From a virus: DNA of 64,000 nucleotides. Both the position numbers and the translations under genes were made by a program. Each line of letters starts with the position of its first letter. Position 1 is the first letter of the stretch. The stretch lies in the IMG/VR virus record IMGVR_UViG_3300045988_092720; one strand, given 5' to 3'. Below are positions 11,627 to 56,350 of the stretch, piece by piece. The notes below the pieces were generated by a model that did not search any database, was not told the origin of the DNA, and worked only from the letters and a program-made list of their open reading frames with translations.

Positions 11627-11900
11627 CTTTATCCTCTTTGTAAAAATATACTTTAATATCTTGAGGTCCTACATGACCAGTAACATAGCTATATTCAACA
11701 AGAATAATACGACCATCATTACATTCAAAAACTTTTGTAACGTACGAACACCAATCATCATTGTCATTGGTAATATATTGACCAACCTCTTTAGCGAAAC
11801 CAATAGGATAGTCAATAAACATAAGTGGGTCTTGCAAGGCACGTTTAAGTTCTTTAATATTTTCTTTTGTCATAGTTCTTTTAAATATATGTGTATGCAT
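11607..11900 (-). CDS. Hypothetical protein.
   Basis: 97-aa ORF. Confidence 0.4.
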   Translation of the reverse strand: MHTHIFKRTMTKENIKELKRALQDPLMFIDYPIGFAKEVGQYITNDNDDWCSYVTKVFECNDGRIILVEYSYVTGHVGPQDIKVYFYKEDKDAIYQL

Positions 11901-14449: not shown

Positions 14450-14721
14450 TTTATCACCGCATAAGATGCTCCATGCGTTCCCCTAATATCAATACGCTCA
14501 ATATATCCTAGGTCAGAAAGAATTTTAACGCCTCGCCAAGCAGTCATACGACCAAAACCAATACCCTCTGCAATTTCTGGCATGGTTAATTTGATGAATT
14601 TTTTGCCAGCTAAATCGTATCCATCTTCTTCTGCACGTCGTTTAATATACCCATGAACCAATGCTACTGTGATATTAAGCTCATGTAATATTTTTAAATC
14701 AACAACAACACTATCAATCAT
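14446..14721 (-). CDS. Winged-helix DNA-binding protein (possible replication organiser or regulator).
   Basis: 91 aa with a wHTH-like segment LTMPEIAEGIGFGRMTAWRGVKILSDLGYIER. Confidence 0.45.
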   Translation of the reverse strand: MIDSVVVDLKILHELNITVALVHGYIKRRAEEDGYDLAGKKFIKLTMPEIAEGIGFGRMTAWRGVKILSDLGYIERIDIRGTHGASYAVIK

Positions 14722-21325: not shown

Positions 21326-21785
21326 CTTCTTGCGGTAATGCAATCAAATCCCAACGCATATCAGGGTCATCATCATAGATAGAATACCCGTCAATAATTG
21401 CCCAGTCATTGTGTGTTTTAAAATGTTCTTTATCAATTTCCCAACCTTTAGCATCAGCAATGGTTTTAACAATCATAGCCATTTTATTAACTTGTGCATC
21501 AGTTGGTGGAACAGTTCCCCATCTAACATTTCCTTCTGTATCTACGCTTGCATCTGCACAGCAAAGAATAGATACACCAATATTACCTGTATTACGATGC
21601 CATGTATGTTTACCAGTAGCATCAAAACTGTTAAAATCAGACCATACACGCCCATCACCTAAAATATTTAAGTGGTAGTAAGGGGAGGTATTTTCATACC
21701 CCCCACCACTCCAATGTAAGGTTACTTGGTCGGCATGGCAATTAGCTGCTAAATAAGCAATATCATTTAGAGTATAAAAAGCCAT
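21252..21785 (-). CDS. N-acetylmuramoyl-L-alanine amidase of the T7-lysozyme / Amidase_2 (PGRP) type; candidate endolysin.
   Basis: Collinear with T7 lysozyme blocks: VTLHWSGG, YYHLNILGDGRV, GKHTWHRNTGNIGVSI, VPPTDAQVNKMAMIVKTIADAKG, FKTHNDW. Confidence 0.7.
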   Translation of the reverse strand: MAFYTLNDIAYLAANCHADQVTLHWSGGGYENTSPYYHLNILGDGRVWSDFNSFDATGKHTWHRNTGNIGVSILCCADASVDTEGNVRWGTVPPTDAQVNKMAMIVKTIADAKGWEIDKEHFKTHNDWAIIDGYSIYDDDPDMRWDLIALPQEDGDGGAIIRGKAIWYHYHPEECKD

Positions 21786-27700: not shown

Positions 27701-30166
27701 ACCAAGCACATCATTATTTGCATTTCTATATTTTAGAGCCTCTTTAGTGAGTGGCATTTTCATGCCAGTTTCACGACCAGTATGAGATAGATATTGCTGT
27801 ATTTTCAATAAACCATCACGTGTTACTCTATCACTATTTAGATAATCGGCAATCATTTGGTCATCACCAGCGATATTACGGTCAGATGTTGCTAATTGTG
27901 TGTTATTAACAACTTTTTCTGGCGTGCCATTCGGACGTACTGCAACTTGTGAGTTTTTTCTACGTGTTTCTTCTGCACTACGTTTAGCTTCATCAATGTT
28001 AGCTTGTAACATTCTGCGTTCGTTAGTAGTTAAGATTTTACGTACGTTATCAAATTGAGGTCCAGTAACATCAATACCATTTGCACCTAAAGTAATAAGT
28101 GTATCTTTGATTTTACTAGCAAGAGCGTGTTTTGCTGGTAAATAATTTGCATCATCTTTTGGAGGAAGTGTATTAATTACTTCTTCCATTTTTTCAGCAA
28201 CATCACGGTTTTCGATATAGCTTTTAGCACTGTCCTGTGTACGCTCTGTATTATCCATGTGTTTAACATAGTTTGTAATACGACCAAGCTCTTCATTTGT
28301 ATAGCCATTTCTTGATTTAATACCAGCTTTAGCTAAATAGTTACGTGGGTTTTTGGCTTGTTCATTGCGTCGAATATCAGAGCTATTAGCATCACGTTTA
28401 CGTGCTTGCATTGCATTATGTACACGATACGCTGCATCTCTTGCTTTGATTGGGTTATCTTTATATTCATGCTCAAAGTATGTTTTATTTGGAGAATTCT
28501 CATATCGTTCATTATGATATGCATTTCTACGTTCATTAATAGCATCAAGCTGAGCTTGGAAAGCATTCTGCTTTTCTCTTTCTTGAATTCTATTTGTAAT
28601 ATCACGCACAGATGTTTGGTCAGGGTTTTCACGTTCAAGGTTAGAGCGTTCTGCTTCTGTTAATTCAATACCAAGTCTATCAGCTTTTTCAGCAAGAGTT
28701 TCTTCTTGTGGTTGCTCCTGAACAGATGGTTCTTCTACTACTTCATTAGAACGTGTCATATCTTCATATAAACTACGAGAAAGTAAATTTGCTTCTTTGT
28801 TGGTAAAACCTAAATTAGCAAAGTTCTCAGCAAACATACGAGGAGATAAATCTTCAGCAGTTTTATCACCATGCAAGCCCATAATATTAGCACGCTCATC
28901 TTGTACAGCTTCCATTGCTGCCGCATAGTCTTCTGGTGCTTTTTTATTCAATACTTGGTTTACAGAATTAGCGAAAGAACTTTCTTCCATCATTGGGGAA
29001 TATGAAGCGTTAGAAATATCATCAACCTCTGTATTACCAAGAGGTGTATTATCAATAAATGTAGGTTCTTCAGCAACGATATCGCCTAAACCATCGTTTT
29101 GAACTATAGGTCCTGCACTATCAGCAATAACATCTTCAGTTGATGTTAAGCCAGCCATTTCGTCAGCTTTATTTATGATTTTATTAGAAGCACCACGAAC
29201 AGCACCACCTACACCGCCTACAGCCATGGAGATGTTAAATGCGTCCTGTGCTGCCATATTCATATCATTGGTCCATGTAGATGGGTCTAACATAGATACT
29301 TGGTCATAGCCCTCTTGACCTTTAATACGACCTTCAATAGCTTGTTGCCATGCTTCTGTATAGCCTTCTACTGCACTGTTAGCTGCATTACTAAGTAAAC
29401 CTTTAACCATTAGTTTACCGCCGTCTTTAGCAAATGCACTAGCTAACATGCCAACCTTACCAGATACACCGATACGGTCAGCTGCATAATCTAACATTGC
29501 AGGTCCCCAACCCTCACTCATAGATTGTCTAAAAGCATCACCTGCTACATCTGTGCCATACCCTGCATTACGATAATCATTGTAAATAGAGCCAGCATTT
29601 TGTACGTTCTCAAGACCAGAACCTACTGCAAGTTCTGTACCGTATTTAGCTACTTTACTTAAACCAGTAGCAACAGAGCCAGCTAATCCCTCAGATACGC
29701 CAGCTCTTGCTAATAAACCACCAATTTTACCTGCGTTTAAAATACCAGCAGTAGTACCGCCTGTAGACATAGCCATAGCTACTTGCGGAACGACATTACC
29801 GACAAATTGACCACCTTGAGCCGCCCAATAGTGAGGATTTGTAACTTTATCTCCCCATGATAAATCAGCAGTATCTGGGATTGTACTTCTGTAAGCTGCT
29901 AGATTAGAATAGTAATTAGCTTCGTTTTCAGTTTTCCCACGTAGCCATTGTGCTGTATCGCTGTCAGATAGGGATAATCCATAAGATACCGCACCTAACA
30001 TATCAGAACCTAAGCGGTCTAAACCAGCACTAAAGTTACCTACAAATTCATCAGCAATGCCATCATAATGTGCCTTGCCCATATAATCATATCCAAGAGT
30101 AGCAAGGTTATTACGATACTGGGCATCAGCATTTCTACTGGCTAACCCGTCTGTCCAATTTGCCAT
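21785..30166 (-). CDS. Giant (2793 aa) virion protein, tape-measure-like or ejection/polyvalent type, with an internal HExxH motif.
   Basis: Gly/Ala-rich N-terminal region. Long helical stretches. Hydrophobic segments near the C-terminus. Sits in the tail module. FVHELLHSATDF lies at aa ~1510 (nt 25625-25639). Confidence 0.55.
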   Translation of the reverse strand: MANWTDGLASRNADAQYRNNLATLGYDYMGKAHYDGIADEFVGNFSAGLDRLGSDMLGAVSYGLSLSDSDTAQWLRGKTENEANYYSNLAAYRSTIPDTADLSWGDKVTNPHYWAAQGGQFVGNVVPQVAMAMSTGGTTAGILNAGKIGGLLARAGVSEGLAGSVATGLSKVAKYGTELAVGSGLENVQNAGSIYNDYRNAGYGTDVAGDAFRQSMSEGWGPAMLDYAADRIGVSGKVGMLASAFAKDGGKLMVKGLLSNAANSAVEGYTEAWQQAIEGRIKGQEGYDQVSMLDPSTWTNDMNMAAQDAFNISMAVGGVGGAVRGASNKIINKADEMAGLTSTEDVIADSAGPIVQNDGLGDIVAEEPTFIDNTPLGNTEVDDISNASYSPMMEESSFANSVNQVLNKKAPEDYAAAMEAVQDERANIMGLHGDKTAEDLSPRMFAENFANLGFTNKEANLLSRSLYEDMTRSNEVVEEPSVQEQPQEETLAEKADRLGIELTEAERSNLERENPDQTSVRDITNRIQEREKQNAFQAQLDAINERRNAYHNERYENSPNKTYFEHEYKDNPIKARDAAYRVHNAMQARKRDANSSDIRRNEQAKNPRNYLAKAGIKSRNGYTNEELGRITNYVKHMDNTERTQDSAKSYIENRDVAEKMEEVINTLPPKDDANYLPAKHALASKIKDTLITLGANGIDVTGPQFDNVRKILTTNERRMLQANIDEAKRSAEETRRKNSQVAVRPNGTPEKVVNNTQLATSDRNIAGDDQMIADYLNSDRVTRDGLLKIQQYLSHTGRETGMKMPLTKEALKYRNANNDVLGGNIGPYNVIVPNPNKKWEARPVKKDHTETIEHDNPTGEEPIVTPYEERLGLNPAQPKPKKQTRPRGPRTVDMVTDDQKAVMRDVEKLAELKSQIQSGGQINEVDALKMVDDLQMETDKGKKEKQAFREYLKHQANEDTGDIDISDNIKDEQAVMEKHMDIINSIADAIQYLHSHPFISKSEYRKILNGIIAKRNQLMRKEPMYAPAWKGILNNVPDYKIPSQRELMEAVNRGEVKIPQVVLNAFLNSPSHFDENIRLWFDKDYNISDVTQASRYDRMRNFIILNALQKGLTRVKAIGMDKLMEELDNPNGDHLLGRLVNRAVHLYPAIGNENKYKSMAGRVGAKKLFPNGAPRLHNINSPLAKRVYSEIKDVVTEVMDDRISKNSKITEEKLKDKKTKNQVSTALRLSAYKDGVLHASIPNYQGDIYTTDIKMDIKLGEEFPVEIKVPEFIDPDDFKEVLDGYLYDMGVITMNDIIDSEIKDGKIIVNAEYVPSALFNNGSEVADYAFHALAEVARQNKGIVIDADLLDQNGKNYLKSHKDLTSRLGYEVIINDDTYTIVPTNDIQMSVTGDKKVSNSKNAKFHEPSEIEMGIMKKVADRSKGLGKLTNGEMRNILKSIMHVVNGDQQAYVTILNYIRTHPNLEIYVADRLVNNDPLGLKFNGAYMPSTGRLYITSDNITPTNDTFVHELLHSATDFTKTADLKNVVNDTLDLMREELEKDEGLAGEIYRAVGNGKILASVSENDPQSVEDVIQRASKNLKRAFGVVRKDGSNQSEDGTVSHQGKFGRKNLDALAGKSQQRTRIRQFIQSINNPESDTNSLKLIMGLAQANQNAHDFLDVPQAIINSPMDTKDKLFLAAMVVPKLGNNPQLDQKYYSFINEMFSYGNTNIFSEQQIREHFQDALADRKRVQKLDTLHQRNRATTTPEAPIAKVLAKIKQDTDYSIRKNDRIDQAEQKLLADIMENGGGIIERINPSEDGISFAWFRKMLQSPSSMARKLIPELKPIIKEAYVAARTYRRKKTEYVQLLDKQFADLDVKNGEDKKMNELLGEVDKRGREFAQPVAVNLNGELKYAIIKPEDTFTEFGLADDKRMRKFVKAEREKGNHVYIGVNKDVYQVISSKENIPSYKDKANANKVAMEMSKAYAKHLGYSERLWDKYVGIRQVLNQIHKDVNDNQVSRGKDPSADLWGYIPREHKRYGVYKMEVKYSPETGRYYPQYTVLTSFDTEADANKYVDSRPVEKGVGYMTIRRERYQADASKSYDGYYSNLTDEEAELHKVYERMSDEDAAALFNRVQGNYTETKKFIDHFLKGKDKSMTYDDFQNLINNKERMKELGLDYKKLQKEAGMANFEKLLKKDKDGVLTHDNVSAYLYRSSGAQMWNKHNLKRAGVLGHNEDHIKAIYHYANTQAKYQGNAPFLDFATRYYEQVYGENYEKQYGRNGTGAKNARQDIVHNYIQRVIGAPNNTDKVLNTIGREIPFIGAYMTKHMGDNWVTTLLNRNMQAMAVFKLGVFRPTAAIAQFGTLANVAALTGFTPQLKYAMQQAGKSGKNGKYGQLFDDLEVYEESASQASEFLDSGDYRRITIGGVKFGKLFDLSMKGFMKADAYTRKVAAIHAYEEYAAKHGLDTTDLHTKNPEAYKKAMEYAKDFVVKTNFDYTDIDSPQLFTKFGTLGKTILQFKKFGVKEAEFLFTAFKGPDGSIDYKGLSRFIGITMGMAGFMGLPFMSAGDDMLKWLTGKGLTDRTKDVLYDWAGKDQTKQRIAMMAIMGAPSMFGVDFSRNVGFGDLTPSSGSELLGPTLSTYGALGDVARNSHDWRDVVTGVSHALSPQLGNFYQAYTGNMRDWKNAENKGAYTSEERFMKLLGFRPVRESIENDLAYRLTMANQELKDGKKEAINDFLRDPSPENKQRIKDFGVTGKQLRDARELKQMSAIDKANKYLPKKSSVEADKVKEQANVYNTFVDGLYDGIEEE

Positions 30167-36043: not shown

Positions 36044-37222
36044 CTAAGCATTTAATCTATCAACGGCTTGTTTTAGAAGAGTTAAATCCTCCTCGTACTT
36101 AGCCTTAGAAATAAAATTATCGTCTACTTCTTTTTTTGTATAAAGAGTTTTAGAGTCTGTTTCTAAATCTTTAGTAGTTAATAAGGAGCGAGATTTAGAA
36201 CCGTCCCACCATGTAACACGAGATGCAGATAACGCTAAAGGTTTATCTTTATGACCTGCCTCAACACCATTACCTCTGGAAAGTTTAATTAAGCTCCATT
36301 CCGTACCAGATGTATCTTTGCCTGTTAATGGCACATTATTCTCTAATGGTGTAATACTTGGCGGAGTATAGTTAATGTTATTGAAATACTTAGTATTAGC
36401 ACTGTGTTTATATACTTCAACCTTGCCATTGTTATTAGCTGTGAAATATACCTCGCCATTAGCGATAGCAAAATCTTCAACCTCAAGTGCAGATGTTACT
36501 TCTGTATTAGTAACACTATCTTCTAAGTTTTCGATAATATAGCCACCAACAGAGAATACAATACTCTTCCCATTATATAACGCACCGTTTGTATCTTGGC
36601 TAGTAGAGATAATTGGAATTGTTGCAGTGTTTTCCAACGCTCTATTTTCATTATAATACTGAACTGTTCGTTGCTTAGTAGTGCTAGTATACAGAATAGA
36701 AACAAACTTATTCGCCGTTTTGTCGTAAGCTAAGTTAAACACCTTATTAGGGAAGTTTACAGTACCTTCAATAGCCATGTCAGTAGTCATAACAGCTACT
36801 TGGTTAGGATTTACAGCACCATTAGTTACATAGATTTTACCTTTGTAAGCACACAATGTATTGCAATGACCCAATCTATTTTTATCTGTAAATGTTTGCT
36901 TAGACATTAAGGTGGAAAAGTCAGCATTGTATTTATAGAATACTTGTTTGGTATTATCATTATTTACACAAGCAATATAGAAAGCATTCGCTTCTTCACT
37001 ATATGTAAATCCTTGACATTGGTTTACACCACTATCTAAAGGAATTTCTAATACCTTAACAATGTTATCTGCACTCTTGAATAATGTCGGTGCAGAGCCT
37101 TTAAGACTTTTAATGAAGTCAGCTTCTGTGCCTGTATTACCAAGCTCTAACCAAGATTGATAAGCACTTTTACCAACATCGCCCTTAGGACCTTTAATAT
37201 TACCTAATTTAACTCTTGGCAT
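36044..37222 (-). CDS. Tail structural / fibre-associated protein.
   Basis: 392 aa, coupled (start/stop overlap) to the collagen-like gene. Confidence 0.45.
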   Translation of the reverse strand: MPRVKLGNIKGPKGDVGKSAYQSWLELGNTGTEADFIKSLKGSAPTLFKSADNIVKVLEIPLDSGVNQCQGFTYSEEANAFYIACVNNDNTKQVFYKYNADFSTLMSKQTFTDKNRLGHCNTLCAYKGKIYVTNGAVNPNQVAVMTTDMAIEGTVNFPNKVFNLAYDKTANKFVSILYTSTTKQRTVQYYNENRALENTATIPIISTSQDTNGALYNGKSIVFSVGGYIIENLEDSVTNTEVTSALEVEDFAIANGEVYFTANNNGKVEVYKHSANTKYFNNINYTPPSITPLENNVPLTGKDTSGTEWSLIKLSRGNGVEAGHKDKPLALSASRVTWWDGSKSRSLLTTKDLETDSKTLYTKKEVDDNFISKAKYEEDLTLLKQAVDRLNA

Positions 37223-38574
37223 TACTGACCTCCTTCCCAGAAACCAACAATATCTAAAATGTAGCGTTTGTTATTACCTGCTACGCCCCAACCTTTGATA
37301 TTACGAGAGTTAGGCTCAACGTAAACGCTATTATTATTGGCATCAATAGATACTTCTAATAACCGTTTAGGAACAGGAGAACTATTAGGTAATGTACATA
37401 ATACACCACCATTACCAGAACCATTACCAGTTACTTTCATATCTAAGTGCAATTTGCCGAAGCCTGTAGCAGGGTTGAATTCGAGATAACCCCGACCATT
37501 ACCTGCGGCTCCTGCCTGTGCAACACCCCACACAACATCGTATGTTTTAACTGCACTTGTATTTACAGCATTAGGTGCAACAGCATTACTAGGTGCAAGG
37601 TTAGAATAAGCAATATCTACAAACAAATCACCATTTTCATCTAGTGTAAATGTTAATTCTGGTTGCGTACCATTATCGCCTTTATCCCCCTTAGGACCTG
37701 TGGGACCTATGTCACCTTTCGGTCCTCGTTCTCCTGCTTCTCCTTTTGGTCCTACGTTACCTTGTGGTCCTTGTGGTCCTACATTACCTTGTAAACCTTG
37801 TGGACCATCTACACCTCTAGGTCCTTGTGGACCAGTAGGACCTATTGGACCTTGTGGACCAATATCGCCTTTGTCACCTTTTACGCCAGACATAGTAATG
37901 AGGTATTCCATTACTCCGCCATTTTTAACAAATACTTTACCGTTATCGGCATCATTAGAACGAACCATAACTAAGCTGTATTCAGAGAATGTGGAAGCGT
38001 TGTTATGCACAGATGCTACAGATGGTTGGATAGAGCTGATTTTAAAAGGCTCCCCTCGTTCACCTCTTGGACCTTGTAAGCCAGTAGGACCGATAGGACC
38101 TATAGGACCACGCTCACCCTGTACGCCACGAGGACCTTGTGGACCAATTTCCCCACGTATACCTTGAATACCTTGCAAGCCTTGAGGGCCGATAGGACCA
38201 ACATCACCACGTTCACCTTTAGGACCTGCTTCACCACGTTCGCCGTTATCCCCTTTAGGTCCAATAGGACCTGCGGGACCAGTTGGTCCAGTTAGACCTT
38301 GTGGACCTACATCACCTTTTGGACCCGCTTGACCATCGTTACCTTTTGGACCAGTTAAACCTCTAGGACCTTCTGGACCCATAGGACCTTGAGAGCCATC
38401 TTCCCCTTTAGGACCTGCTTCACCTTTAGGTCCTTTTAGTTTTTCCAATTGTTCTGGCGTAAAGTCTTCAAACTTAAAGTCTTTGCCATTTTTGCCATCT
38501 TTCCCATCACGATTGTGATTAATCGTAATACTAGGAGAAGAGGGTTGGATAATTTTAATAATTTTGTCAGCCAT
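37222..38574 (-). CDS. Collagen-like repeat protein (tail fibre) with a C-terminal globular domain.
   Basis: Two long runs of G-X-Y triplets ([25 protein letters not shown]...), about 80 triplets in total. Confidence 0.8.
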
Positions 38575-48463: not shown

Positions 48464-50605
48464 TTAAAAGCCTCCGACGCTACGAGAAGGTTCCGTTGGT
48501 GCTCCATTTCCGTTACGTGGCACGATTTGAGGCGATTGATTATCAGTTCTTGATAAGCCCCCAACCAGTCCTTGAGCAAGGTTTGGACCGCCAAAGCTAA
48601 ATCCTTGTCCGCCATTTCCGCCTTGAGTTGCTCCGTTTCCTTGTAGAGTGTTGAATAATCCTGTTTGTTCTGTTCCATTTCCTTCTCCTCCAAATAATAA
48701 CTGTAGTTCTGGTGGTAGCATCAATAAGTATTGAGGTGGTAATACACCAAATGTCATATATGCTTGTAATGCTTCTGGTGGTAAACTACCAAGGACTTGT
48801 TGTTTAAGTTGCATATCCATAATTGCACGTTGTTGTACAACAGCAGGGTCTGTAACATAATCATTGTAATTTTTAAAACCAGCACTTTCAATCCATTTTT
48901 TGAATAGATTGTAAATGTTTTGTGGTGTAACAATAGGAATACCAGCTGCTTGTGTTTGCATTAAAGCTGTAAGCATTGTTTGCAAAGTCATAATAGTAGA
49001 CTCTTTAGTAGAAATACTGATACCAGCATTGACAACCAAATCGAAATTGCCATTTAAGTCGTCAGGGCTAATACGTAACTGTTTGTTAGTTAGTCGAACC
49101 ACTGTTTCTTGGTCTACGAATTTTTGGTTCAAGCTAACCATAAAACGAAACAGTTCCGATATCCCTGTCTCCGCAAACATACGAGCAATTAATTCAAGCC
49201 GTTGTGCAGATTGTCCTAAAATAGCACTAATGCCTGTAGCCGTTTTGTTTAGGCTGTTAGCATCAAGACCTTGGTTATACCGTGTAATACCAGTGCGATT
49301 TTCCTTTTGCCCCTCTAGCCACTCTAAAAATTGGAAAGTTTGTGGGGATAATTGGTTTACAGGCATAGACATAGCTACGTCACCCATACTAGCACCTGGT
49401 TTTTTACGAATAACCTTACGACCTTCAATATAGTCAGAGATGTTAATACTATCTTCAGACAAAATCATTTTAGGGTCATTTGTCAATGCAATATTTTGTA
49501 CGATTTGGCGAGTTAAAGCTACTTTCATATCTTGTAATTCACCAATAAGTTCTGCATAAGAACGCTTAACCCAAATACGATGTGGGTCTTTAGTTGGAGA
49601 AATAGAGAAGAATGGGTGTCTACCCATGTAATTAGGCTCAGCACGTAGGATTACATCACCAGCAACGGTAATAATCATATCCTCAAGAATACCATCGTTA
49701 TTGAAGTCAATCTTGGTATAGCACTCATAAATTGTAACTTCATCACGTGCTTTTTCTTGATTATTTTTATTAAGAGGAGTGTAATTATCGCCAATAGCTT
49801 GTTCTACTTCGTTAGATAGCCAAGATGTAGGACCATTATCTGGTTTAACCATATCTACATTAGCGTAAATACCCTCTTTTTCTTTTTGACGAAGATGAGA
49901 CATGGTAACTTTTTTACGGTGTGCCACGAAATTCGCATCTTCGAGGTTTTTAGCATCAGGAGAATATAGAAATTCTGATACTAAGATGTTCTCAATTTTA
50001 GGACTATTCTTAATATAATACGGAGAATTCCATGTAACCATGAAGTCACCCATCATATCTGGACCTTGTACATTGGTAATTTCAACACCAGTATGAGCTA
50101 ATAACTGTAAAGCCTCGGCATTGAGCTTTTGTGTTTCTGGTGTCCACCCCTCTGTACGTTCCCAATAGCATTTGATAATACCCATACCTGTAATCAAAGA
50201 GTCTTTCATCCAATTATACAGAATAGGGAAGAATTTGTTTTGGCGTTGCAATTGATATACAAGTAAACTTTGCATAACTTCTGCATTTTGGTCATCTTCT
50301 TCAGTAACACCAGCTACTGTAATTACTTCGTCAGAGCCAGTAAATACCTTCATCAAAGATGGTAACGCCCATTCAATAGTATCCGCCACATCTGTAGATA
50401 CCAAAGAAGAAGTTTTACTTAAAATAGGGAATTTATTAGCGTAGTAATCTTTATCAGCATAGTAAATCTGATAACGCTCACGGACAGTAGGCTCAATAAT
50501 AGATTGTTGATATGCCTCAGCTTCCGCAATGTCAGCTTGTACAGACTTTAATAAAGCCTTATCCGCTTCTTCACCTGTTAATTCAACCATATATTCATCA
50601 GCCAA
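48464..50605 (-). CDS. Portal protein.
   Basis: 713 aa, immediately downstream of the large terminase. Gly-rich disordered C-terminus. Confidence 0.7.
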   Translation of the reverse strand: MADEYMVELTGEEADKALLKSVQADIAEAEAYQQSIIEPTVRERYQIYYADKDYYANKFPILSKTSSLVSTDVADTIEWALPSLMKVFTGSDEVITVAGVTEEDDQNAEVMQSLLVYQLQRQNKFFPILYNWMKDSLITGMGIIKCYWERTEGWTPETQKLNAEALQLLAHTGVEITNVQGPDMMGDFMVTWNSPYYIKNSPKIENILVSEFLYSPDAKNLEDANFVAHRKKVTMSHLRQKEKEGIYANVDMVKPDNGPTSWLSNEVEQAIGDNYTPLNKNNQEKARDEVTIYECYTKIDFNNDGILEDMIITVAGDVILRAEPNYMGRHPFFSISPTKDPHRIWVKRSYAELIGELQDMKVALTRQIVQNIALTNDPKMILSEDSINISDYIEGRKVIRKKPGASMGDVAMSMPVNQLSPQTFQFLEWLEGQKENRTGITRYNQGLDANSLNKTATGISAILGQSAQRLELIARMFAETGISELFRFMVSLNQKFVDQETVVRLTNKQLRISPDDLNGNFDLVVNAGISISTKESTIMTLQTMLTALMQTQAAGIPIVTPQNIYNLFKKWIESAGFKNYNDYVTDPAVVQQRAIMDMQLKQQVLGSLPPEALQAYMTFGVLPPQYLLMLPPELQLLFGGEGNGTEQTGLFNTLQGNGATQGGNGGQGFSFGGPNLAQGLVGGLSRTDNQSPQIVPRNGNGAPTEPSRSVGGF

Positions 50606-50607: not shown

Positions 50608-52044
50608 TTACATTGCACCTCCCATCGGTATGTCAGCAGTATTAACTGTTCCAAATGTTCCTACAGGTGGACTAGCAATAGCTGAAATGTGTGCTAAACT
50701 GTCAATTAAATCGTCATGTAAAGATTTAGGGAACGATAAAAACTCGCTCTCAAGTTCTACTAAGAAGTCTTTGCCCATAGGGAACCACAATGTGCCAGCC
50801 TTAAAGCGTGGTTGCAATGCGGCAATACGAATTTCTTTCTTCTCCTTAGCCTCTAATGGCTTAACTGTGAACCAAGTATTACGAGCAATCATTTCTTTCT
50901 CCACAAAATGAATTAAAGCCGCCTGATAAGCGACCTTTTCAATACCAACAAAGATTGGTCGGTATTTTTGTACCATTCTAAAGATGGTGTCAATTGTTTT
51001 CGTTGGGTCCCATCGTCCATAATCAATTTCTAATAGGAACCAATGGTTTTCTGGATTTACGGCAACAGCACAGACAGATGTAAAGTCAGCTGTTTCCTTT
51101 TCAGAAATAGCTAAATCGCAAGCGATAAAGATAGAACAATCTTCGATATTCAATACGTTAGGGTCATAATAGCGGAAGTATTCTTTTTTGAAGATTTGGC
51201 TTTCAGGAGAGATAGCAATACATAGTTTCTCACGTTCCCAAATATCTAACTGACCAAGTTTACGCCACTTTTCTCGTTCATCATTAATCGCTTCTACTGG
51301 ATACATCTCTTCCCAGTTAGATTGACCATCTTCATTTAATACAGGAATACGCTCAGCATCAAAACCTAATTCCTCTTTGTTGGATATTACCTGTTCAATA
51401 ATACACTTTTCACCAAGATTATTACCGATGAAGAATATCCGTGTGTTCTTGCCAAGGAAATACACATCAGATAAGAACCATTGATAGTCAGATTTTTGCA
51501 CTGTATCAGATAAACTATCTTCCAAGTCTTGAGGGTCATCTATGAGGATAATATCAGGTCGTCTATCCTTGTTATTCAAACCACGGACACTAGAACCCTT
51601 ACCATACGCTTCCATACGCACAGTGATTTCTTCACCGTTTTTATCCTTCACCACAATTTCAAATGCCTTCTCAGACTGTTCTTTAATACGAACAAGATTA
51701 AGGTTCATTAATTCATTACTGGTGTATTCTTCTGCAATATCTTTAAGCCTTCGGCTGGCTGCCCGTTGGTTAGCCATGATAAATACGATGTATTGCTTCT
51801 TCTTGGATGGAAATACCAAACAGTGAATTGGGAAAGCTCTTAATACGTACGACGTTTTCGCACTCTCACGGAAGCCCTCTACCGCATAATGTCTATCTCC
51901 GTTTAGTAATACCTCTCCCCATTTACGGTGAAACCAAGCAGGCTTTACTTCGTTCTCCGCTGGAAGAAACATCTGCCTAAATAATACCAAGTCATTCTCA
52001 CATCTATCGTAAATCTCAGCTAATTGTTCAATCTCTTTCGACAT
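50608..52044 (-). CDS. terL: Terminase large subunit.
   Basis: N-terminal ATPase with a deviant Walker A (GFRESAKTS). C-terminal RNaseH-like nuclease with acidic residues (FIACDLAISEKETADFTSV). First gene of the leftward late operon. Confidence 0.85.
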   Translation of the reverse strand: MSKEIEQLAEIYDRCENDLVLFRQMFLPAENEVKPAWFHRKWGEVLLNGDRHYAVEGFRESAKTSYVLRAFPIHCLVFPSKKKQYIVFIMANQRAASRRLKDIAEEYTSNELMNLNLVRIKEQSEKAFEIVVKDKNGEEITVRMEAYGKGSSVRGLNNKDRRPDIILIDDPQDLEDSLSDTVQKSDYQWFLSDVYFLGKNTRIFFIGNNLGEKCIIEQVISNKEELGFDAERIPVLNEDGQSNWEEMYPVEAINDEREKWRKLGQLDIWEREKLCIAISPESQIFKKEYFRYYDPNVLNIEDCSIFIACDLAISEKETADFTSVCAVAVNPENHWFLLEIDYGRWDPTKTIDTIFRMVQKYRPIFVGIEKVAYQAALIHFVEKEMIARNTWFTVKPLEAKEKKEIRIAALQPRFKAGTLWFPMGKDFLVELESEFLSFPKSLHDDLIDSLAHISAIASPPVGTFGTVNTADIPMGGAM

Positions 52045-52465
52045 TACATCTCTCCTTTCTTACCCTTTCATTACTTTCTCCTAAAAATACAATTTTGTAG
52101 CGTATTTGTTACTCTACAGATAATTACAGAAAGAAAATACTCTACGTTTCTGCTTTCGTAATACCACTCTGAAGTGTATCCCTGAGAAAGCTGATACGTA
52201 TTTTTTCTGACGAGTATTACAATACGAGGAAGAAAAAAGAAAAAGAAAAGAAAGAAATATATAAAGAAAGAAAAGACAAAGAAAAAAGACTAGTAAACCA
52301 CACTATACATAGTTTGCCATTTTTTGGTACTTACGATACCCCAACCCACCATTTCAACCGTATTACAATATCCACCTGTCAATTAAAAATAGCGTCCATT
52401 TTCGTATTCTGGGGAGATACAATTACTTCATGTTACATTCATTTATAGTACTACCCTTTTTAGAA

Positions 52466-52582
52466 GCCCCACCCCTTTGGATTTTTGTATAAGCATGATT
52501 TCAGAAGTCTTTGAATTTTTGTATAAGCAGTCTCTATTTTCTATGTCCAGCCCCCACGCCCCGAATGCGAAGCCCCACCCCC
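52466..52582. promoter_or_regulatory. C-rich/G-rich regulatory element with a 15-bp direct repeat and a G4-capable motif, in the divergent control region.
   Basis: agCCCCACCCC at 52466-52476. Direct repeat atttttgtataagca at 52480-52494 and 52515-52529. CCCCCacgCCCC...CCCCaCCCCC at 52551-52582, which on the minus strand is four G-runs of four or more. Confidence 0.4.
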
Positions 52583-52822
52583 TGAAGTGTGGAAGAGAAA
52601 GAGCAAACAGATGTACGATAGAAAGGGCAAAATTCACAGTATTACAACGCACTATATAAAGTGGGGGGGTAATGTCGGAAAACACGGGGTAAATACAACG
52701 CATTACACTATATGATTGGATATGTGGCATAGTTTAGTCAAGGCAACTGACTAAGGGTTGCAGGATACACAAACAAGTATCCAGTTATATTACTTGCCCT
52801 CAAGGGCGGAAAGAGGTCTAAA

Positions 52823-53251
52823 ATGGCTAAAACTACAACAACAAATATCGTAACTGATTTCAAGGCTTTGCTTGAAAAAGCTCACAAACTATCTGAGGGC
52901 GAACGCTTGCCAATGGTAGAGCGTAAATATCAAGCTGTAACAGATACAAAAAATCTAACTGTATCCGTAACACTTGAATTGCCACTCAGTGAAGTAATGA
53001 AATCCGCAAAGGGCTCTAATTACATTGTCCCTATGGGCAATGTAAAAGGTGCTAGAGGCTCAAATGTGATTGAGGCTCACACTGAGGATGGGCTTATTAT
53101 CAAATTATACGCTGATAGAGCCTATATTTCAAGCGAAGCTCAAGAAAAAGAAAAAGCAGTGAAAAACGCTACTAATTCTGAAAAAGAGCTATTAAAAGAG
53201 CAAAATAAAATGCTCATGGCTCTATTAGCTAAAAATGGTATTGAATTATAA
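52823..53251 (+). CDS. Hypothetical protein, expressed as an isolated gene.
   Basis: 142 aa. The 5' UTR holds three palindromes (TAGTCAaggcaacTGACTA, GGATACacaaacaaGTATCC). A strong terminator follows. Confidence 0.5.
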   Translation: MAKTTTTNIVTDFKALLEKAHKLSEGERLPMVERKYQAVTDTKNLTVSVTLELPLSEVMKSAKGSNYIVPMGNVKGARGSNVIEAHTEDGLIIKLYADRAYISSEAQEKEKAVKNATNSEKELLKEQNKMLMALLAKNGIEL

Positions 53252-53259
53252 TCCTAGGA

Positions 53260-53290
53260 GGGTAGTCTATTAAGGCTACCCTTTTTTTTT
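53260..53290 (+). terminator. Intrinsic terminator (T1).
   Basis: GGGTAG...CTACCC hairpin followed by T9. Confidence 0.7.
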
Positions 53291-53292
53291 AT

Positions 53293-54180
53293 TTTATATT
53301 TTAATTGTATACAATTATGTTTTATACTGTTATATTGGTATTATGGTAAATTTGATACAATGGAATTTTATATTATTCTTTTCCCCGCAAGTCAATTGTG
53401 TACAATTGAATTGTATACTATTTTCTGGTGTTTTTTATGATGTTTAAAATCGAACATATGTTTATATACATTGTATAAAATTGAATTGTGTATAATGTAG
53501 CCTGCAATCGAACACATTGTATGGAATTGTATTTTATGCAATTGAGTTTTATACTATTATCTTTTATAGAAATTGTATTTCATACAATTTGATTTTATTC
53601 TATTATATCTTATACTGTATTATCTTATATTGTTTATATTTTATAAAATGGAATTTGATACTTTTATTTTCCCCGCAACCGTATTGTATGCAATTGAATT
53701 GTATTCGATTATATTGTATTGTGTATCATCATACCCAATTAATTGTATGCAATCTTATTTTGTATTATTCAATCGTGATTATTGCTAGTTGTATAAAATT
53801 ATATTTGAGGCTATCCTATTGTGTAGGGTAGCCTTTTTTTTTATGTCAAATTTTATTGTGTACAATTTAATCGTGTAATTTAAAACGCTTTATTTGCCCT
53901 GTACGGCGTTTTTATATGTTCCATGATAGATTATACCTAAAAATAGTTAGATAGGGCTTACAGCTTAAATAAATGAATTCTAGGGCTATTGACAAAATTA
54001 TATATATGTGGTATTTTATTATATTTACATTTAATAGAGAATACAATTCAATTTGATACAATTTAATTGATAGTAGAATAATCACGCACTATATATTTTT
54101 TATATATTATATTTGATGCAATTTAATTTCACGCATACGTATTATATAAAATATAATTTGATGTAGCATCGAACATACGT
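53293..54180. repeat. AT-rich non-coding iteron / direct-repeat region; candidate replication origin or regulatory hub.
   Basis: At least 12 copies of ATTGTRTR (AATTGAATTGTAT). Three ATCGAACAYA boxes at 53448, 53507 and 54166. Four to five TTTGATRCAAT boxes. An approximately 280-bp direct repeat anchored on ttttccccgcaa (53378 and 53660). An internal TTGACA-N17-TATTTT promoter at ~53989. Confidence 0.5.
53809..53842 (+). terminator. Intrinsic terminator (T2), near-duplicate of T1.
   Basis: GGCTAtCCTA...TAGGgTAGCC hairpin followed by T9. Its flanks resemble those of T1 (…TTTTTTTTTAT…ATTGTrTACAATT). Confidence 0.6.
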
Positions 54181-54373
54181 TTGCTTTGGGTGGTTGGCTG
54201 GCTTGCTCCGTCGTCCGTCAGTTCGCATAGTTGCTGGGTTTTCAACCGATGGCTCGGAAATGTGGGATAGTCAGGTTGTCCCAACGGACAGCACCACGTT
54301 GGGTTGAGTACCTCGGTACTTCGTAGATTGGTGCGTAGTTCGCCAGAAATAAGAGGCGAGAAAGGGGTTCATT

Positions 54374-54649
54374 ATGAACATCGAAAAACAAATACAAGTG
54401 TCTTGGAAAGCCGCTATAGCGATATTATTAGGAAAAGCTGGTATTTATGACGCCAACTTAGATTACGTGCATCTTTCTGATGCAGAGGGTTTCCCAGAAG
54501 ATTACGGTTGGATTGAATATCGTAGTATAGAGGGACCTGTAATTTATACTTCTACACCATTTTGTTTTATGGCTTATAAAAATAATGTAGCTCGTGCTAA
54601 AAAAGTTGGTATGAGAAAAATTATTCGTGCATACGAAGTATGTCGATAG
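54374..54649 (+). CDS. Hypothetical protein.
   Basis: 91 aa, preceded by a GC-rich structured leader of about 190 nt. Confidence 0.5.
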   Translation: MNIEKQIQVSWKAAIAILLGKAGIYDANLDYVHLSDAEGFPEDYGWIEYRSIEGPVIYTSTPFCFMAYKNNVARAKKVGMRKIIRAYEVCR

Positions 54650-54668
54650 TGTATTAGGAGTGAATATT

Positions 54669-54884
54669 ATGAGACGTGAGTTTGCATCTACGTACCCAGC
54701 GGGTACAGATTTCTTTTTAATGTTTGACTCTGCCCGTATTGTGGCAGTTCACATGGGCGAAGATGTTCCAGATGCTTTGTCTGATGCTGATTTAGAATGT
54801 TTGGCTACGGAACGATGTGTGTCTATTCACACTATCCGTCTTGAACATCAATATTTCCAACGTGGTATTTTAGGCTGGGAGTAA
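54669..54884 (+). CDS. Hypothetical protein (start refined to MRREFAST).
   Basis: GGAGTG RBS. Confidence 0.45.
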   Translation: MRREFASTYPAGTDFFLMFDSARIVAVHMGEDVPDALSDADLECLATERCVSIHTIRLEHQYFQRGILGWE

Positions 54885-54911
54885 TCCCAGTCTTTTTAAT
54901 TGGAGGTTATT

Positions 54912-55055
54912 ATGACACTCAAAGAATTGCGTAGAAAACAATCCAAGGATAAAGCCTTGGTGGAAGATATACTGTTTATTACAGGCGTATTTGTGTTATT
55001 AGTTATCTGGGGACAATACTGTTTGTCCCATGGTTGGGTAATATTTTTAGATTGA
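54912..55055 (+). CDS. Small membrane peptide (47 aa, MTLKELRRKQ...GVFVLLVIWGQ...). Not in the ORF track.
   Basis: Read by hand. GGAGG RBS, one TM helix. Confidence 0.4.
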   Translation: MTLKELRRKQSKDKALVEDILFITGVFVLLVIWGQYCLSHGWVIFLD

Positions 55056-55063
55056 GGGCTGAT

Positions 55064-55468
55064 ATGTTCAAAGTTAAAAATGCATTGGAAATCTTAACTA
55101 TTCGAGCCTTTTTATCATACTTGGATAGAGGCTATGGTGTACTACCACTAGGCAATAGTATTTTTGCTGTTGCATATGAAATCTATGTTCGTGATTTTTA
55201 CAATAATATAGATTGTGATGTTACTTGCATTACCGTACAAGACCGTCATCTTTATGTAGATTACCGTAATAATATTGCAGAATGCTATGATGGTGATTAT
55301 ACACCACTATGGACACCTGAAGAATGTTTATATTATACGCTCTTGTCAGTTGGTTTGGTCAATAAAGGCGATAAATACAAGAAATTTGTCGGTAAAGACC
55401 GTGAATATGGTAAACCTTGGAAATATTATTGGGAAATAGATTGGAACACAAAACAGGAGGATGAATAA
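55064..55468 (+). CDS. Hypothetical protein.
   Basis: 135 aa with a GAGGG RBS; start refined to MFKVKN. Confidence 0.45.
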   Translation: MFKVKNALEILTIRAFLSYLDRGYGVLPLGNSIFAVAYEIYVRDFYNNIDCDVTCITVQDRHLYVDYRNNIAECYDGDYTPLWTPEECLYYTLLSVGLVNKGDKYKKFVGKDREYGKPWKYYWEIDWNTKQEDE

Positions 55469-55560
55469 TGTATAACGATATTTGGTGGTTAATTTTCTTA
55501 ATTATGGCTGGTATATTTATTATTATTATCGGACTTGGCGTAATTTATATTTTCTTATAG
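55468..55560 (+). CDS. Tiny hydrophobic peptide (30 aa, MYNDIWWLIFLIMAGIFIIIIGLGVIYIFL). Not in the ORF track.
   Basis: AGGAGG RBS 8 nt upstream. ATGA overlap with the previous stop. Confidence 0.3.
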   Translation: MYNDIWWLIFLIMAGIFIIIIGLGVIYIFL

Positions 55561-55568
55561 GGGGTATT

Positions 55569-55718
55569 ATGTTAATTACGGTCGATGACATATTACGTGT
55601 TATAGAAAACAATCCGAAAACCTATACATGGTATATATATGATAGGTATACAAAAGTAACACGTGAAATCAATAATTTCCGTCTCGCCCCTGATATGCTA
55701 GTATTATGTGATGACTGA
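55569..55718 (+). CDS. Small hypothetical protein (49 aa, MLITVDDILRV...).
   Basis: GGGGG RBS. Start refined within track ORF 55482..55718. Confidence 0.35.
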   Translation: MLITVDDILRVIENNPKTYTWYIYDRYTKVTREINNFRLAPDMLVLCDD

Positions 55719-55727
55719 GAAAACATA

Positions 55728-55919
55728 ATGAACAGCAAAGCTGTGTGCAAAGCTGTAAGATTTTTGCATTTAGATACGCTTGTAAAGGTTGGTCTATTCC
55801 ATTACCAATACAGACACTATACTCTGTTTTATCATGAAAAACATATTCGTGATATTGTAATCCAAGATAAAAAAATTATCCTCGTTATCGACAGTGATGA
55901 AAGGAGATGGGGTAAATGA
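55728..55919 (+). CDS. Hypothetical protein.
   Basis: 63 aa. Confidence 0.4.
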   Translation: MNSKAVCKAVRFLHLDTLVKVGLFHYQYRHYTLFYHEKHIRDIVIQDKKIILVIDSDERRWGK

Positions 55920-56272
55920 GCAAACAAGACGTAGGAAATTTGAGCTTTATTTATGATAGCAAGAAAAATCGTCCTGTATTTGCAAGACGGTTAATTAATG
56001 GTCAAGTGTGCGATATTCCATTGAAACGCACATCGTATACAGACGAACATACCGTGTTTTTAACATGGGATGGGTATCATGACCAATTAATGTCTAAGGA
56101 TTTTGGTCGCATAGCCCGTAAAAATGGATATTGGATGGATGTTAAAATTCGTTCAGTTGGTATGCATTTTGTTGGCACTTGGGATATTTTTGAACAAGTA
56201 ATTGAAGATGAAAAGGTATACCTATGTATCACAGATGGTACATTCCTAGAAGAAAACGGTCTATCATTATGA
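55916..56272 (+). CDS. Hypothetical protein.
   Basis: 118 aa with ATGA coupling. Confidence 0.45.
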   Translation: MSKQDVGNLSFIYDSKKNRPVFARRLINGQVCDIPLKRTSYTDEHTVFLTWDGYHDQLMSKDFGRIARKNGYWMDVKIRSVGMHFVGTWDIFEQVIEDEKVYLCITDGTFLEENGLSL

Positions 56273-56350
56273 TGCATGACGTAGTTTGTTTATTAATTTT
56301 ATCTTATATGCTTTATTGTGTGTATATTATTTGGAAAGGTGGTCAATAAT

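Follow-up and report, generated by a model that had tools for sequence, protein, structure and literature searches.

A conserved array of short dyads at the early/late junction of an uncultured podophage, a tentative origin-type region beside the main early promoter

What does a phage do with ~0.9 kb of gene-free DNA placed exactly where its early and late genes part? The locus at 53286-54180, here called the block, belongs to an uncultured podophage of ~66 kb from human samples, with LUZ24 and N4 as distant relatives. The window, which is the whole 64-kb stretch of DNA that was analysed, lacks 2.2 kb of this genome. The block is AT-rich (23.6% GC), as an earlier note on this DNA had remarked, and occupies a divergent junction, with the large terminase gene running leftward and the early genes rightward, so that late genes lie on one side of it and early genes on the other. 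We read it as the central non-coding control region of the podophage, and it most likely serves as the site where a phage protein assembles for replication start and/or early-gene control. Tentatively, and at less than even confidence, we favour an origin-type array of protein-binding sites next to the main early promoter (P_E).

Replication genes, namely a primase-helicase (12130-14109) and a DnaE-type polymerase (15493-18411), share the strand of the late genes, a giant gene for a 2793-aa protein forms the distal end of the structural module, and the small terminase gene is located at the other, convergent junction, away from the block. The GC skew switches at 52-53 kb, but gene orientation changes at the same place, so that the skew by itself is uninformative about an origin. 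No lysogeny or partition genes, which would have pointed to a prophage switch or a centromere, were found in the window or in the missing 2.2 kb, and no omega-like genes were found in the window; the phage looks lytic. No near-identical DNA turned up among GenBank phages, and a literature search on Veillonella phages and the origins of N4-like phages returned nothing specific. A relative of the phage was found within the assembly of a cultured Veillonella isolate, and the host is probably Veillonella or another member of the Negativicutes. Human-associated metagenomes often contain this clade, and IMG/VR, ENA and Logan hold dozens of its contigs of 64-68 kb; none of its members has been cultured.

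The dense, imperfect repeats described in the earlier note are present in the block far beyond chance in both shuffle and Markov controls. A repeat-density scan of the whole sequence placed the block as its top window; the only rival cluster sits within an ORF (37222-38574), and no other dense repeat cluster was found in non-coding DNA. With at least three repeated sites, unique in the genome, the block resembles an iteron region in this respect. The core unit is the dyad ATTG-TRTR-CAAT, present with up to one mismatch at 12 positions in the block and 4 elsewhere. Allowing one mismatch on both strands, ATTGTRTRCAAT gave 24 matches in the window compared with 5.0 +/- 2.7 in shuffles, at 12 distinct positions within 53304-53866 and 4 elsewhere. 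Half-sites were similarly concentrated: ATTGTRT occurs 20 times in 53250-54200 versus 47 times in the remaining 63 kb, ATTGTRTR 13 times (the earlier count was at least 12) versus 19 outside, and AATTGTAT 10 times in the block versus 7 outside, a 94-fold enrichment. Under a local first-order Markov control, ATTG-N4-CAAT was observed 5 times against 0.06 expected, and ATTGT 16 times against 4.9 +/- 2.2. A longer dyad form, AATTGTAT-NNN-ATRCAATT, was also identified. In total, the array comprises about 15-20 short dyads or half-sites (ATTGTRT / AYACAAT) in both orientations, and the motif behaves as a dyad or half-site for a putative DNA-binding protein. The 15-bp spacing between sites is local, restricted to pairs and triplets; a block-wide 15-bp lattice was not significant in a Rayleigh test. 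The parts of the block are listed in Table 1.

Table 1. Features in and next to the block, from left to right (window coordinates; a dot stands for no strand)
Feature	Position	Strand	Remarks
Terminator T1, stem-loop and T9 run	53256..53294	+	Ends the transcript of the 142-aa ORF; stem-loop almost unchanged in 15 relatives
A-site 1, perfect 14-bp palindrome AATTGTATACAATT	53303..53316	.	Directly 3' of T1; nearly invariant in 15 relatives
Duplication copy 1	53347..53441	+	Holds TTTGATACAAT (53351-61) and a TTTTCCCCGCAA box (53379-90)
A-site pair in copy 1, 15 bp apart	53394-53407, 53409-53422		
B box 1 CGAACATATGTTTA	53450..53463	.	Gram-positive LexA consensus CGAAC-N4-GTTCG except for the last two bases
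Degenerate A-sites	53469-82 and 53484-97 (15 bp apart), 53515-28	.	Within 53469..53528
Two 46-bp tandem units	53525..53614	+	Each opens with the long-form dyad AATTGTAT-NNN-ATRCAATT (53525-43, 53571-89)
AT-rich core, about three tandem 15-mers TATTCTATTATATCT, TATACTGTATTATCT, TATATTGTTTATATT	53596..53645	.	Candidate unwinding element
Duplication copy 2	53635..53729	+	Holds TTTTCCCCGCAA (53667-78)
A-site triplet in copy 2, 15-bp spacing	53682-95, 53697-710, 53712-25		
A-site AATTGTATGCAATC	53741..53754	.	Halves split by a 45-nt cassette in four relatives
Terminator T2, stem-loop and T9 run	53807..53844	+	Inside the block; nearly invariant in relatives
A-site TATTGTGTACAATT	53854..53867	.	Directly 3' of T2, mirroring T1 and A-site 1
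Inverted repeat AAAACGC-N17-GCGTTTT	53882..53912	+	Conserved, 91-95% identical in relatives
Main early promoter P_E, TTGACA-17-nt spacer-TGgTATTTT	53989..54017	+	Nearly invariant in 15 relatives
Two inverted A-type sites 15 bp apart, GAATACAATTC, TTTGATACAATTT	54039..54069	-	Fall at roughly +15 to +45 in the P_E transcript
B box 2 CGAACATACGTTTG	54169..54182	.	CGAACATACGTT invariant; perfect consensus CGAACATACGTTCG in three relatives
Early operon 5' leader, GC-rich, with conserved hairpins	54183..54373	+	Adjoins the array, not part of it

Several further elements had been proposed for this region. All three ATCGAACA boxes were found (53449, 53507 and 54168), and the TTGACA promoter placed at about 53989 was recovered as TTGACA-17-TATTTT with a TG extension, from which a transcription start near 54024 is predicted. 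Only three exact copies of TTGATRCAAT exist (53352, 54053 and 54113), so that the four to five TTTGATRCAAT boxes claimed earlier are reached only by counting the one-mismatch copies at 53531 and 53577. The marker TTTCCCCGCAA of a proposed duplicated unit of ~280 bp does occur twice, 288 bp apart (53380 and 53668), and marks a duplicated stretch of 95 nt with 77% identity (53347-53441 and 53635-53729). A small peptide encoded by this unit (MEF..FPA..IELY) was considered and rejected: it lacks a ribosome-binding site, and almost all of the substitutions in relatives would be non-synonymous. The idea of an RNA polymerase-binding or -10-box array finds no support: promoter-like matches stay at chance level, with 21 sigma-70-like matches found in the region versus 15.2 +/- 4.2 expected.

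Both terminators were confirmed. T1 (53256-53285) and T2 (53807-53835) each form a GC-containing stem-loop of 13 pairs followed by a T9 run, as in intrinsic terminators, and both are conserved in relatives; a scan of 52000-55000 detected 7 terminator-like sites compared with 1.4 in shuffles. Over 31 nt their 3' flanks share 84% identity, and each terminator is followed by this flank and then by an ATTG-TRTR-CAAT dyad, in agreement with the proposed duplication of a terminator-containing unit. However, the two do not bound the whole block, since T2 lies 345 bp inside it rather than at its right end; together they bracket only the left ~520 bp.

Comparison with 15 relatives revealed that the block is a conservation island between diverged neighbours. 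Its nucleotide identity is 80-91%, against 85-98% for the terminase gene, whereas the 142-aa ORF beside it reaches only 49-70% identity, and among the early ORFs several show 40-60% protein identity or are absent. By alignment, the conservation of the block is comparable to that of an essential gene, which suggests strong purifying selection on non-coding DNA. The AT-rich core (53596-53645) reaches 89-98% identity, and TTTGATACAAT with its surroundings (53348-53371) is almost invariant. No other non-coding DNA of the genome is conserved as well, which makes the block the obvious experimental handle for mapping replication or genome ends, for shuttle or interference plasmids and for finding the binder. 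Among relatives, the array gains and loses 15- and 45-nt modules, growing and shrinking as binding-site arrays do. Indels are concentrated at 53500-53560, and indels and cassettes at 54060-54160. The 45-nt cassettes are nested palindromes inserted exactly at dyad centres, with Y-shaped folds of -16 to -20 kcal/mol. In distant relatives the layout is kept and the repeats differ, for example TTGGCATGA in five copies in L037, TACTA-TATA-TAGTA in L040 and ATTGATAATCAAT in the Veillonella element. A changed repeat within a kept architecture would fit a co-evolving binding protein, and such lineage-specific repeats constitute a natural series for pairing DNA-binding proteins with their sites.

The suggestion in the earlier note of an origin or initiator-binding array stands as the best single reading and has gained some new evidence, with origin activity itself still a proposal. 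By nearest-neighbour calculation, the least stable 50-bp duplex of the window is the AT-rich core and the least stable 100-bp duplex is 53549-53648, both between the two clusters of A-sites. The AT-rich DNA of lowest stability that adjoins iterons is thus present, but in several relatives the minimum lies some 2.1-2.3 kb upstream of the terminase gene, a position that in L066 falls just upstream of the early promoter, so that low stability may be no more than a property of AT-rich DNA ahead of promoters. In favour of an origin, the motif is clustered, unlike a dispersed promoter. Against it, the array consists of short dyads instead of helically phased direct iterons of 17-22 bp, and the two half-site spacings among the dyads (N4 and N9) could not both be bound alike by one dimer. 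A cluster of DnaA boxes (TTATNCACA, up to one mismatch) was sought and dismissed, with 5 found versus 2.9 +/- 1.7 expected. Moreover, the features that support an origin are also compatible with an array for transcription control or with a region of genome ends.

If the block is an origin, the binding protein would fill the dyads in packed pairs and triplets, 15 bp apart, flanking the core. Transcription from P_E, which is 350 bp away and points away from the core, would add negative supercoiling behind the polymerase, and the core would open. The primase-helicase and the DnaE-type polymerase could then take over, while T1 and T2 may shield the bound region and the early operon from transcription. 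What the analysis itself establishes is the array and its statistics, its conservation, the terminators, the promoter consensus and the stability minimum, whereas each of these steps, and which protein binds, is our inference. The dyad-binding protein is probably encoded by the phage. A small winged-helix protein (14446-14721) is only a candidate; it lies inside the replication module, 39 kb from the array, matches weakly to phrog_8102, a "replication initiation protein" family (E = 0.006), and keeps R-T-WR--K in its presumed recognition helix at 52-56% overall identity. No initiator gene was found adjoining the array, and the neighbouring 142-aa ORF (52823-53251) had no family match and yielded an unusable structure model (pLDDT 41).

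The origins of lambda and of the lytic lactococcal phages c2, phi31 and sk1, whose hosts are Gram-positive, are non-coding and AT-rich, contain direct and inverted repeats and are activated by a neighbouring promoter; that of c2 separates divergent blocks of early and late genes. The block shares with them a unique non-coding locus, a cluster of dyad-symmetric sites next to the least stable AT-rich DNA and a strong nearby promoter that could activate opening, and with c2 also its position. It differs in the absence of an adjoining initiator gene and in the two terminators that bracket the left part of the array. With respect to iteron origins, the difference lies in the sites themselves, 12-14-bp dyads and 7-bp half-sites spaced by 15 bp rather than phased direct repeats of 17-22 bp.

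Control of early transcription is a possible, though doubtful, alternative, in which the dyads are operators and a phage or host repressor shuts off or times P_E through a roadblock at +15 to +45 together with looping to sites upstream. Two inverted A-type sites indeed lie just 3' of the predicted start and another site lies about 135 bp upstream; the near-invariance of P_E and the location of the block at the early/late divergence point also favour a control array. On the other hand, about 12 of 15 sites are found 130-700 bp upstream of P_E, beyond T2, no site overlaps its -35 or -10 element, and about 20 sites over 900 bp go far beyond the needs of simple operators. A repressor gene was not identified in the window. 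Omega repressor heptads (pSM19035), ParR-parC (plasmid R1) and the p4/p6 switch region of phi29 are closely packed arrays on which small dimeric proteins build a nucleoprotein filament, either at promoters or at centromeres. They have in common with the block many short sites, direct and inverted, at sub-helical-turn spacing, but no partition or omega-like genes were found here.

The same control reading would tie the switch to the host LexA through two CGAAC-N4-GTTT boxes (53450-63 and 54169-82). Both correspond to a LexA (Cheo) box, a Gram-positive consensus that may not be that of the host. The window contains 3 matches to the LexA consensus versus 0.55 expected, a perfect CGAAC-N4-GTTCG is present in L002, L004 and L020, GAAC-N4-GTTT of B box 1 is kept in all relatives, and boxes of the form GAAC-N4-GTTY are again present in the L039 and L040 junctions. 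In phage GIL01, the functional dinBox1 CGAACaagcGTTTT lies in the control region and the Gram-positive consensus is CGAAC-N4-GTTCG (PMC4551915). The B boxes fit this consensus and resemble dinBox1 in sequence and in their location in a phage control region (PMC4551915). In contrast to GIL01, the boxes are off the promoter (box 2 at about +145 of P_E, box 1 at no supported promoter), so neither overlaps a promoter as a LexA operator would, and lysogeny genes are lacking. Should these boxes be functional, they would connect a phage that looks lytic with the damage response of its host.

A genome-end region is rather unlikely. According to this explanation, the block contains or abuts a direct terminal repeat with end-processing and packaging signals, merged into a single copy during assembly. 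Judged by portal and terminase, the cultured phages nearest to this one are LUZ24-like and N4-like, both of which package with short direct terminal repeats, and the large terminase matches and junction synteny agree with such a packager. As in LUZ24-like (Bruynoghevirus) and N4-like phages, portal and large terminase genes run leftward, about 2 kb is non-coding, and small early genes run rightward from a sigma-70-type early promoter; LUZ24 carries a 184-bp terminal repeat in the equivalent junction, with sigma-70 promoters on both sides. The flanking terminators would keep transcription off an end-processing site. The available assemblies are single-copy, so that a terminal repeat would be invisible in them; contigs of relatives begin at arbitrary places, and one is 1.4 genome lengths long. 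Assemblies that are circular, or in which terminal repeats have collapsed, would be expected to look like this. Break points of IMG/VR contigs, scattered over 52.2-53.8 kb, were discarded as a clue to physical ends, strain variation being the better explanation. However, the repeat motif is lineage-specific while the large terminase is highly conserved (94-99% protein identity within the clade), as a packaging signal the family-wide box AAGCCCCACCC upstream of the terminase gene is the stronger candidate, and the small terminase gene lies at the convergent junction, whereas in LUZ24 it adjoins the large one. The LUZ24 junction has no comparable dense dyad array, portal identity is only 28.6%, and the replication genes of the present phage, unlike those of LUZ24-like and N4-like phages, are on the late-gene strand. 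At the left end of T7, a terminal repeat, arrays of short repeats (7-bp direct repeats), the tandem early promoters A1-A3 and a secondary origin occur together. The short repeats of the block would resemble those arrays, and both loci combine short repeats, strong host-type early promoters and a candidate origin in the first kilobase before the early genes, but T7 has neither a dyad array nor bracketing terminators.

A combined model, which we consider improbable, would have the block act as the replicon and also as the switch in a carrier state gated by LexA. Host LexA on the two conserved CGAAC-N4-GTTY boxes and a phage protein on the dyads would silence P_E and the origin in an episome until DNA damage releases them, and the array would be remodelled by the 45-nt cassettes, as a small element of the site-specific mobile or the template-switch kind. 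Such gating could represent a GIL01-like strategy in the LUZ24/N4 supergroup that does without an integrase or classical repressor, and, if true, an episomal carrier state would account for the relative inside the Veillonella isolate assembly.

There is a similarly slim chance that an internal promoter drives an AU-rich RNA of 200-470 nt ending at T2 and acting as a regulatory RNA or replication primer. T2 requires some transcript to terminate, and its source could be the almost invariant extended -10 TTTGATACAAT or TTGATT-16-TATACT at 53589-53616, but promoter-like matches do not exceed chance. The T1-T2 interval folds better than shuffles (z = -5.35), which follows from the folding of the inverted repeats themselves, and the Y-shaped cassettes at dyad centres recall the growth of structured RNAs. 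A conserved RNA structure in this interval was rejected for want of covariation: among 16 sequences, 0 of 69 predicted pairs showed a compensatory change (covariation term +0.5), the dyads vary on one side only, with loss of pairing, and the short dyads offer only 4-5 A/U pairs.

The reading of long-form dyads (8-bp stem, 3-nt loop) as extruded N4-type hairpin promoters for a virion RNA polymerase, the 2793-aa protein, is largely refuted and very improbable: although terminase and portal resemble those of N4-like phages, the giant gene ends the structural module and the 3-nt-loop dyads occupy the genome's early end, the protein has no Pfam, PHROG or PDB match, no T7/N4 polymerase motifs (R-x3-K...YG, HDS) and no DxDxD motif, the hairpins, with 8-9 A/T-rich pairs, reach only -2.5 to -5.3 kcal/mol as DNA where the N4 type has a stable 5-7-bp stem, and a near-invariant host-type consensus promoter already serves the early genes.

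Searches for RNA families gave no Rfam match in the block, and at E <= 1 only two chance-level matches, in or beside the 142-aa ORF. An unrelated EGFOA RNA at 19952-20058 is the sole match to a known RNA family in the window.

The repeat region of 53286-54180 is real, under strong selection and single in the genome. It is the window of highest repeat density in the whole sequence, with 23.6% GC, and all repeats listed in the earlier note are present. The heptamer ATTGTRT was found in 20 copies in 53250-54200 compared with 47 in the other 63 kb, while AATTGTAT occurs 10 times inside the block region and 7 times outside. With at most one mismatch, the 12-mer ATTGTRTRCAAT yielded 24 matches (5.0 +/- 2.7 in shuffles), spread over 12 positions inside the block and 4 in the rest of the window. 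ATTG-N4-CAAT was observed 5 times, against 0.06 expected from a control matched to the local AT-rich composition. The three ATCGAACA boxes and the TTGACA promoter were confirmed, as were the 46-bp tandem unit, the two TTTCCCCGCAA copies at a distance of 288 bp and the 95-nt duplication. Both terminators reported earlier exist, but they do not bound the whole block, as the second lies inside it. The TTGATRCAAT boxes, previously counted as four to five, number only three as exact copies, and the 15-bp spacing is local to pairs and triplets, with no lattice across the block. The window's next densest cluster of repeats (37500-38500, minus strand), built of the words GGTCCTAC and CCACAAGG, falls within an ORF (37222-38574) among structural genes and may encode a repetitive protein segment.

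The core element is the dyad ATTG-TRTR-CAAT (A-site), and several good copies are accompanied by a degenerate copy 15 bp further on. A long form, AATTGTAT-NNN-ATRCAATT, starts both 46-bp units (53525 and 53571). Variation of the dyad in relatives is one-sided, with for example ATTGTGTA, ATTTGATA and ATTTTATA each opposite a constant CAAT half; the TTTGATRCAAT boxes of the earlier note are thus variants of the A-site, whose true unit may be a 7-bp half-site. The second element, the B box (CGAAC-N4-GTTT), is matched three times in the window, where 0.55 matches would be expected. Its sequence agrees with the Gram-positive LexA consensus CGAAC-N4-GTTCG and is similar to that of dinBox1 of GIL01, which is functional in that phage (PMC4551915). 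In three relatives, box 2 is a perfect CGAAC-N4-GTTCG. Downstream of the stem-loop terminators T1 and T2 the arrangement is alike, a T-rich flank of similar sequence leading to an A-site, indicating that a terminator-plus-site unit was duplicated. Between two A-site clusters, about three tandem AT-rich 15-mers (53596-53645) form the duplex of lowest stability in the entire window. The main early promoter P_E (TTGACA-17-TGgTATTTT) is nearly invariant in relatives; downstream of it, two inverted A-type sites occupy about +15 to +45 and B box 2 lies at about +145, after which a GC-rich leader extends to the first early gene at 54374.

Coordinates of the features, with nucleotide identity to the window in 15 relatives
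Feature	Position	Direction	Identity
Leftward genes (structural and replication genes included)	52044 down to 1	leftward	
Large terminase	50608-52044	leftward	85-98%
SU10-type portal	48464-50605	leftward	
Scaffold and tail genes, amidase		leftward	
Giant protein, 2793 aa (Gly/Ala-rich N-terminus, hydrophobic C-terminal segments)	21785-30166	(-)	
DnaE-type polymerase	15493-18411	leftward	
Winged-helix protein	14446-14721		
Primase-helicase	12130-14109	leftward	
Erf-type annealing protein		leftward	
Ribonucleotide reductase, ThyX, dUTPase		leftward	
Small genes, mostly without known function	from 52823 on	rightward	
142-aa ORF	52823-53251		49-70%
Terminator T1	53256-53285		
Repeat block	53286-54180		80-91%
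A-sites, good copies	53303, 53394, 53682, 53741, 53854		
B boxes 1 and 2	53450-53463 and 54169-54182		
Terminator T2	53807-53835		
T2 to P_E	53836-54030		80-93%
Early promoter P_E	53989-54017		
Leader	54183-54370		62-89%
Cassette sites in L002, L004, L006, L008, L009, L012, L013, L030 and L031	equivalent to ~53401, ~53505, ~53746, ~54072, ~54115		

Alignment with the 15 relatives across 52180-54640 identified the block as an island of conservation between fast-evolving neighbours. The early ORFs of 54374-56300 (plus strand) are hypervariable beside the conserved noncoding block: none of the 15 relatives has a homologue of the first (54374-54649), and several others are 40-60% identical at the protein level or absent, some occurring in only part of the relatives. 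Almost invariant stretches within the block were observed at 53348-53371, 53572-53660 and 53880-54020, and its length changes as 15-nt units and a 45-nt cassette are gained or lost. The GC-rich leader of 54183-54373 (plus strand, 190 nt) is conserved, in contrast to the ORF that follows it, for which no relative has a homologue; it contains conserved hairpins and a few compensatory pairs (e.g. TCGCC/GGCGA vs TCTCC/GGAGA), but it is not predicted to fold more stably than shuffles do. The relatives are 77-94% identical in 52180-52340, a stretch of purine-rich (A/G) non-coding DNA upstream of the terminase gene. Conservation also extends to 52520-52580 and 52640-52720, the latter with a repeated ACAACGCAYTA...ACTATAT motif.

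The cassette is absent from the window itself. In several relatives it splits an A-site exactly into its two halves and reads AATTGTAT-TTT-ATACAATT, followed by GTAAAC-N4-GTTTAC. At least three different A-sites are occupied across different genomes, a related form is located downstream of P_E, and presence varies by site and genome; in the T1-T2 interval, the insertion point is the exact centre of the ATTGTRT/ATRCAAT dyad. As single strands, the cassette loci are predicted to adopt Y-shaped folds (-16 to -20 kcal/mol). This pattern could reflect template switching at the centres of palindromes, a very small site-specific element, or selection acting on a single-stranded structure.

In distant relatives (terminase 53-71% identical), the junction follows the order of the window: terminase, non-coding DNA with AAGCCCCACCC boxes, small ORF(s), terminator, AT-rich repeats, consensus promoter and GC-rich leader. 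The repeat itself differs, being TTGGCATGA in five copies in L037, TACTA-TATA-TAGTA in L040, and ATTGATAATCAAT and TATAGGCTGTAT in the Veillonella element. Such a lineage-dependent motif in a fixed architecture argues for a putative co-evolving, sequence-specific binding protein and against a universal host factor. The AAGCCCCACCC box, a candidate late promoter or packaging signal, occurs at 52465-52474 and 52571-52580, both in non-coding DNA on the upstream side of the large terminase gene. It recurs family-wide (terminase 53-100% identical; L037, L039, L040, L065, L066) and adjoins GAAC-N4-GTTY boxes in L039 and L040.

The phage genome comprises about 66 kb, of which 64 kb lie within the window, and the sign of the GC skew flips at 52-53 kb, where gene orientation changes as well. 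The 2.2 kb outside the window encode the small terminase and no integrase. This gene (phrog_2538, E = 1e-12; L094:7090-7611) sits between window positions 64000 and 1 at a convergent junction, ~52 kb from the large terminase along the leftward block and ~14 kb the other way round. No GenBank phage is near-identical to the window. For the portal, the nearest cultured relatives are a Photobacterium phage (31% identity) and LUZ24-like phages (28.6%); for the terminase, they are N4-like and LUZ24-like phages. More than 30 close relatives were identified in IMG/VR, on contigs of 64-68 kb from human-associated samples, and the wider terminase family has about 1000 members, many on ~65-kb contigs. 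A 94-kb contig, IMGVR_UViG_3300007196_000010 (L012 and L024), carries two terminase copies ~65.6 kb apart; this assembly thus covers 1.4 genome lengths, which fits a circularly assembling or concatemeric genome. Many large-terminase homologues (P0001, P0013-P0022, P0025) measure ~810 aa vs 478 and contain LAGLIDADG or Hom_end domains, indicating inteins or homing endonucleases inside; the L039 portal (8478-11660, 1060 aa), with a faint LAGLIDADG_3 match, may be similarly interrupted. One contig of the Veillonella sp. VA139 isolate genome bears a relative whose terminase is 64% identical. This relative (L066; NZ_RQVL01000001.1, 15911-31245) lies on a 247-kb contig with the junction architecture of the window. 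It may represent a prophage, an episomal or carrier state, or an assembly that is chimeric or concatemeric. Together with strong Shine-Dalgarno sites, the Veillonella relative points to Negativicutes as probable hosts.

An origin, early/late transcription control and genome ends are each expected once per genome, and all suit this location. The kind of region is familiar, namely a phage origin or control region of repeated binding sites beside an early promoter; the motif, terminator bracketing, LexA-type boxes and cassette are new details from an uncultured phage clade of human-associated samples. We tentatively favour an origin-type nucleoprotein array, because the sites are numerous, extend over 900 bp and flank the stability minimum. 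The functional steps, all of which we infer, would be that the terminators shield the array and that transcription from the strong P_E, directed away from the sites, feeds negative supercoils into the AT-rich core. The winged-helix protein of the replication module is a plausible binder, with a weak match to a replication-initiator family and a presumed recognition helix conserved at 52-56% overall identity. Against an origin count the absence of an initiator gene adjacent to the array, the two half-site spacings of the dyads, the lack of DnaA box enrichment, and a stability minimum that in relatives tends to sit near the early promoter.

A control array for P_E is a somewhat less likely reading. 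The boxes of LexA type fit it, as do the sites located past the inferred start of transcription; the majority of sites, however, are found on the far side of T2, and the promoter core itself is free of them. A genome-end region is less likely still. In its favour, LUZ24 has its 184-bp terminal repeat at the corresponding junction, flanked by divergent sigma-70 promoters, and the terminase belongs to the type that packages genomes with terminal repeats. Against it, the repeat varies by lineage despite a conserved terminase, the gene for the small terminase is found at the convergent junction instead, and the AAGCCCCACCC box, shared across the family, makes a better candidate for the signal. The origin, control-array and genome-end readings are mutually compatible; at the T7 left end, ends, repeats, early promoters and a secondary origin all fall within one kilobase. 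A non-coding RNA ending at T2 is improbable, with 0 of 69 predicted pairs compensatory and thus no covariation support. N4-type hairpin promoters are essentially excluded, since the hairpins are weak and the giant protein lacks any polymerase signature. This 2793-aa protein, which matches nothing in Pfam, PHROG or PDB and is devoid of RNA polymerase motifs, is probably an internal or ejection virion protein. In the AT-rich region between the replication and lysis genes, a full-length match to the Rfam EGFOA RNA was identified at 19952-20058 (minus strand; 73 bits vs a gathering score of 37.7).
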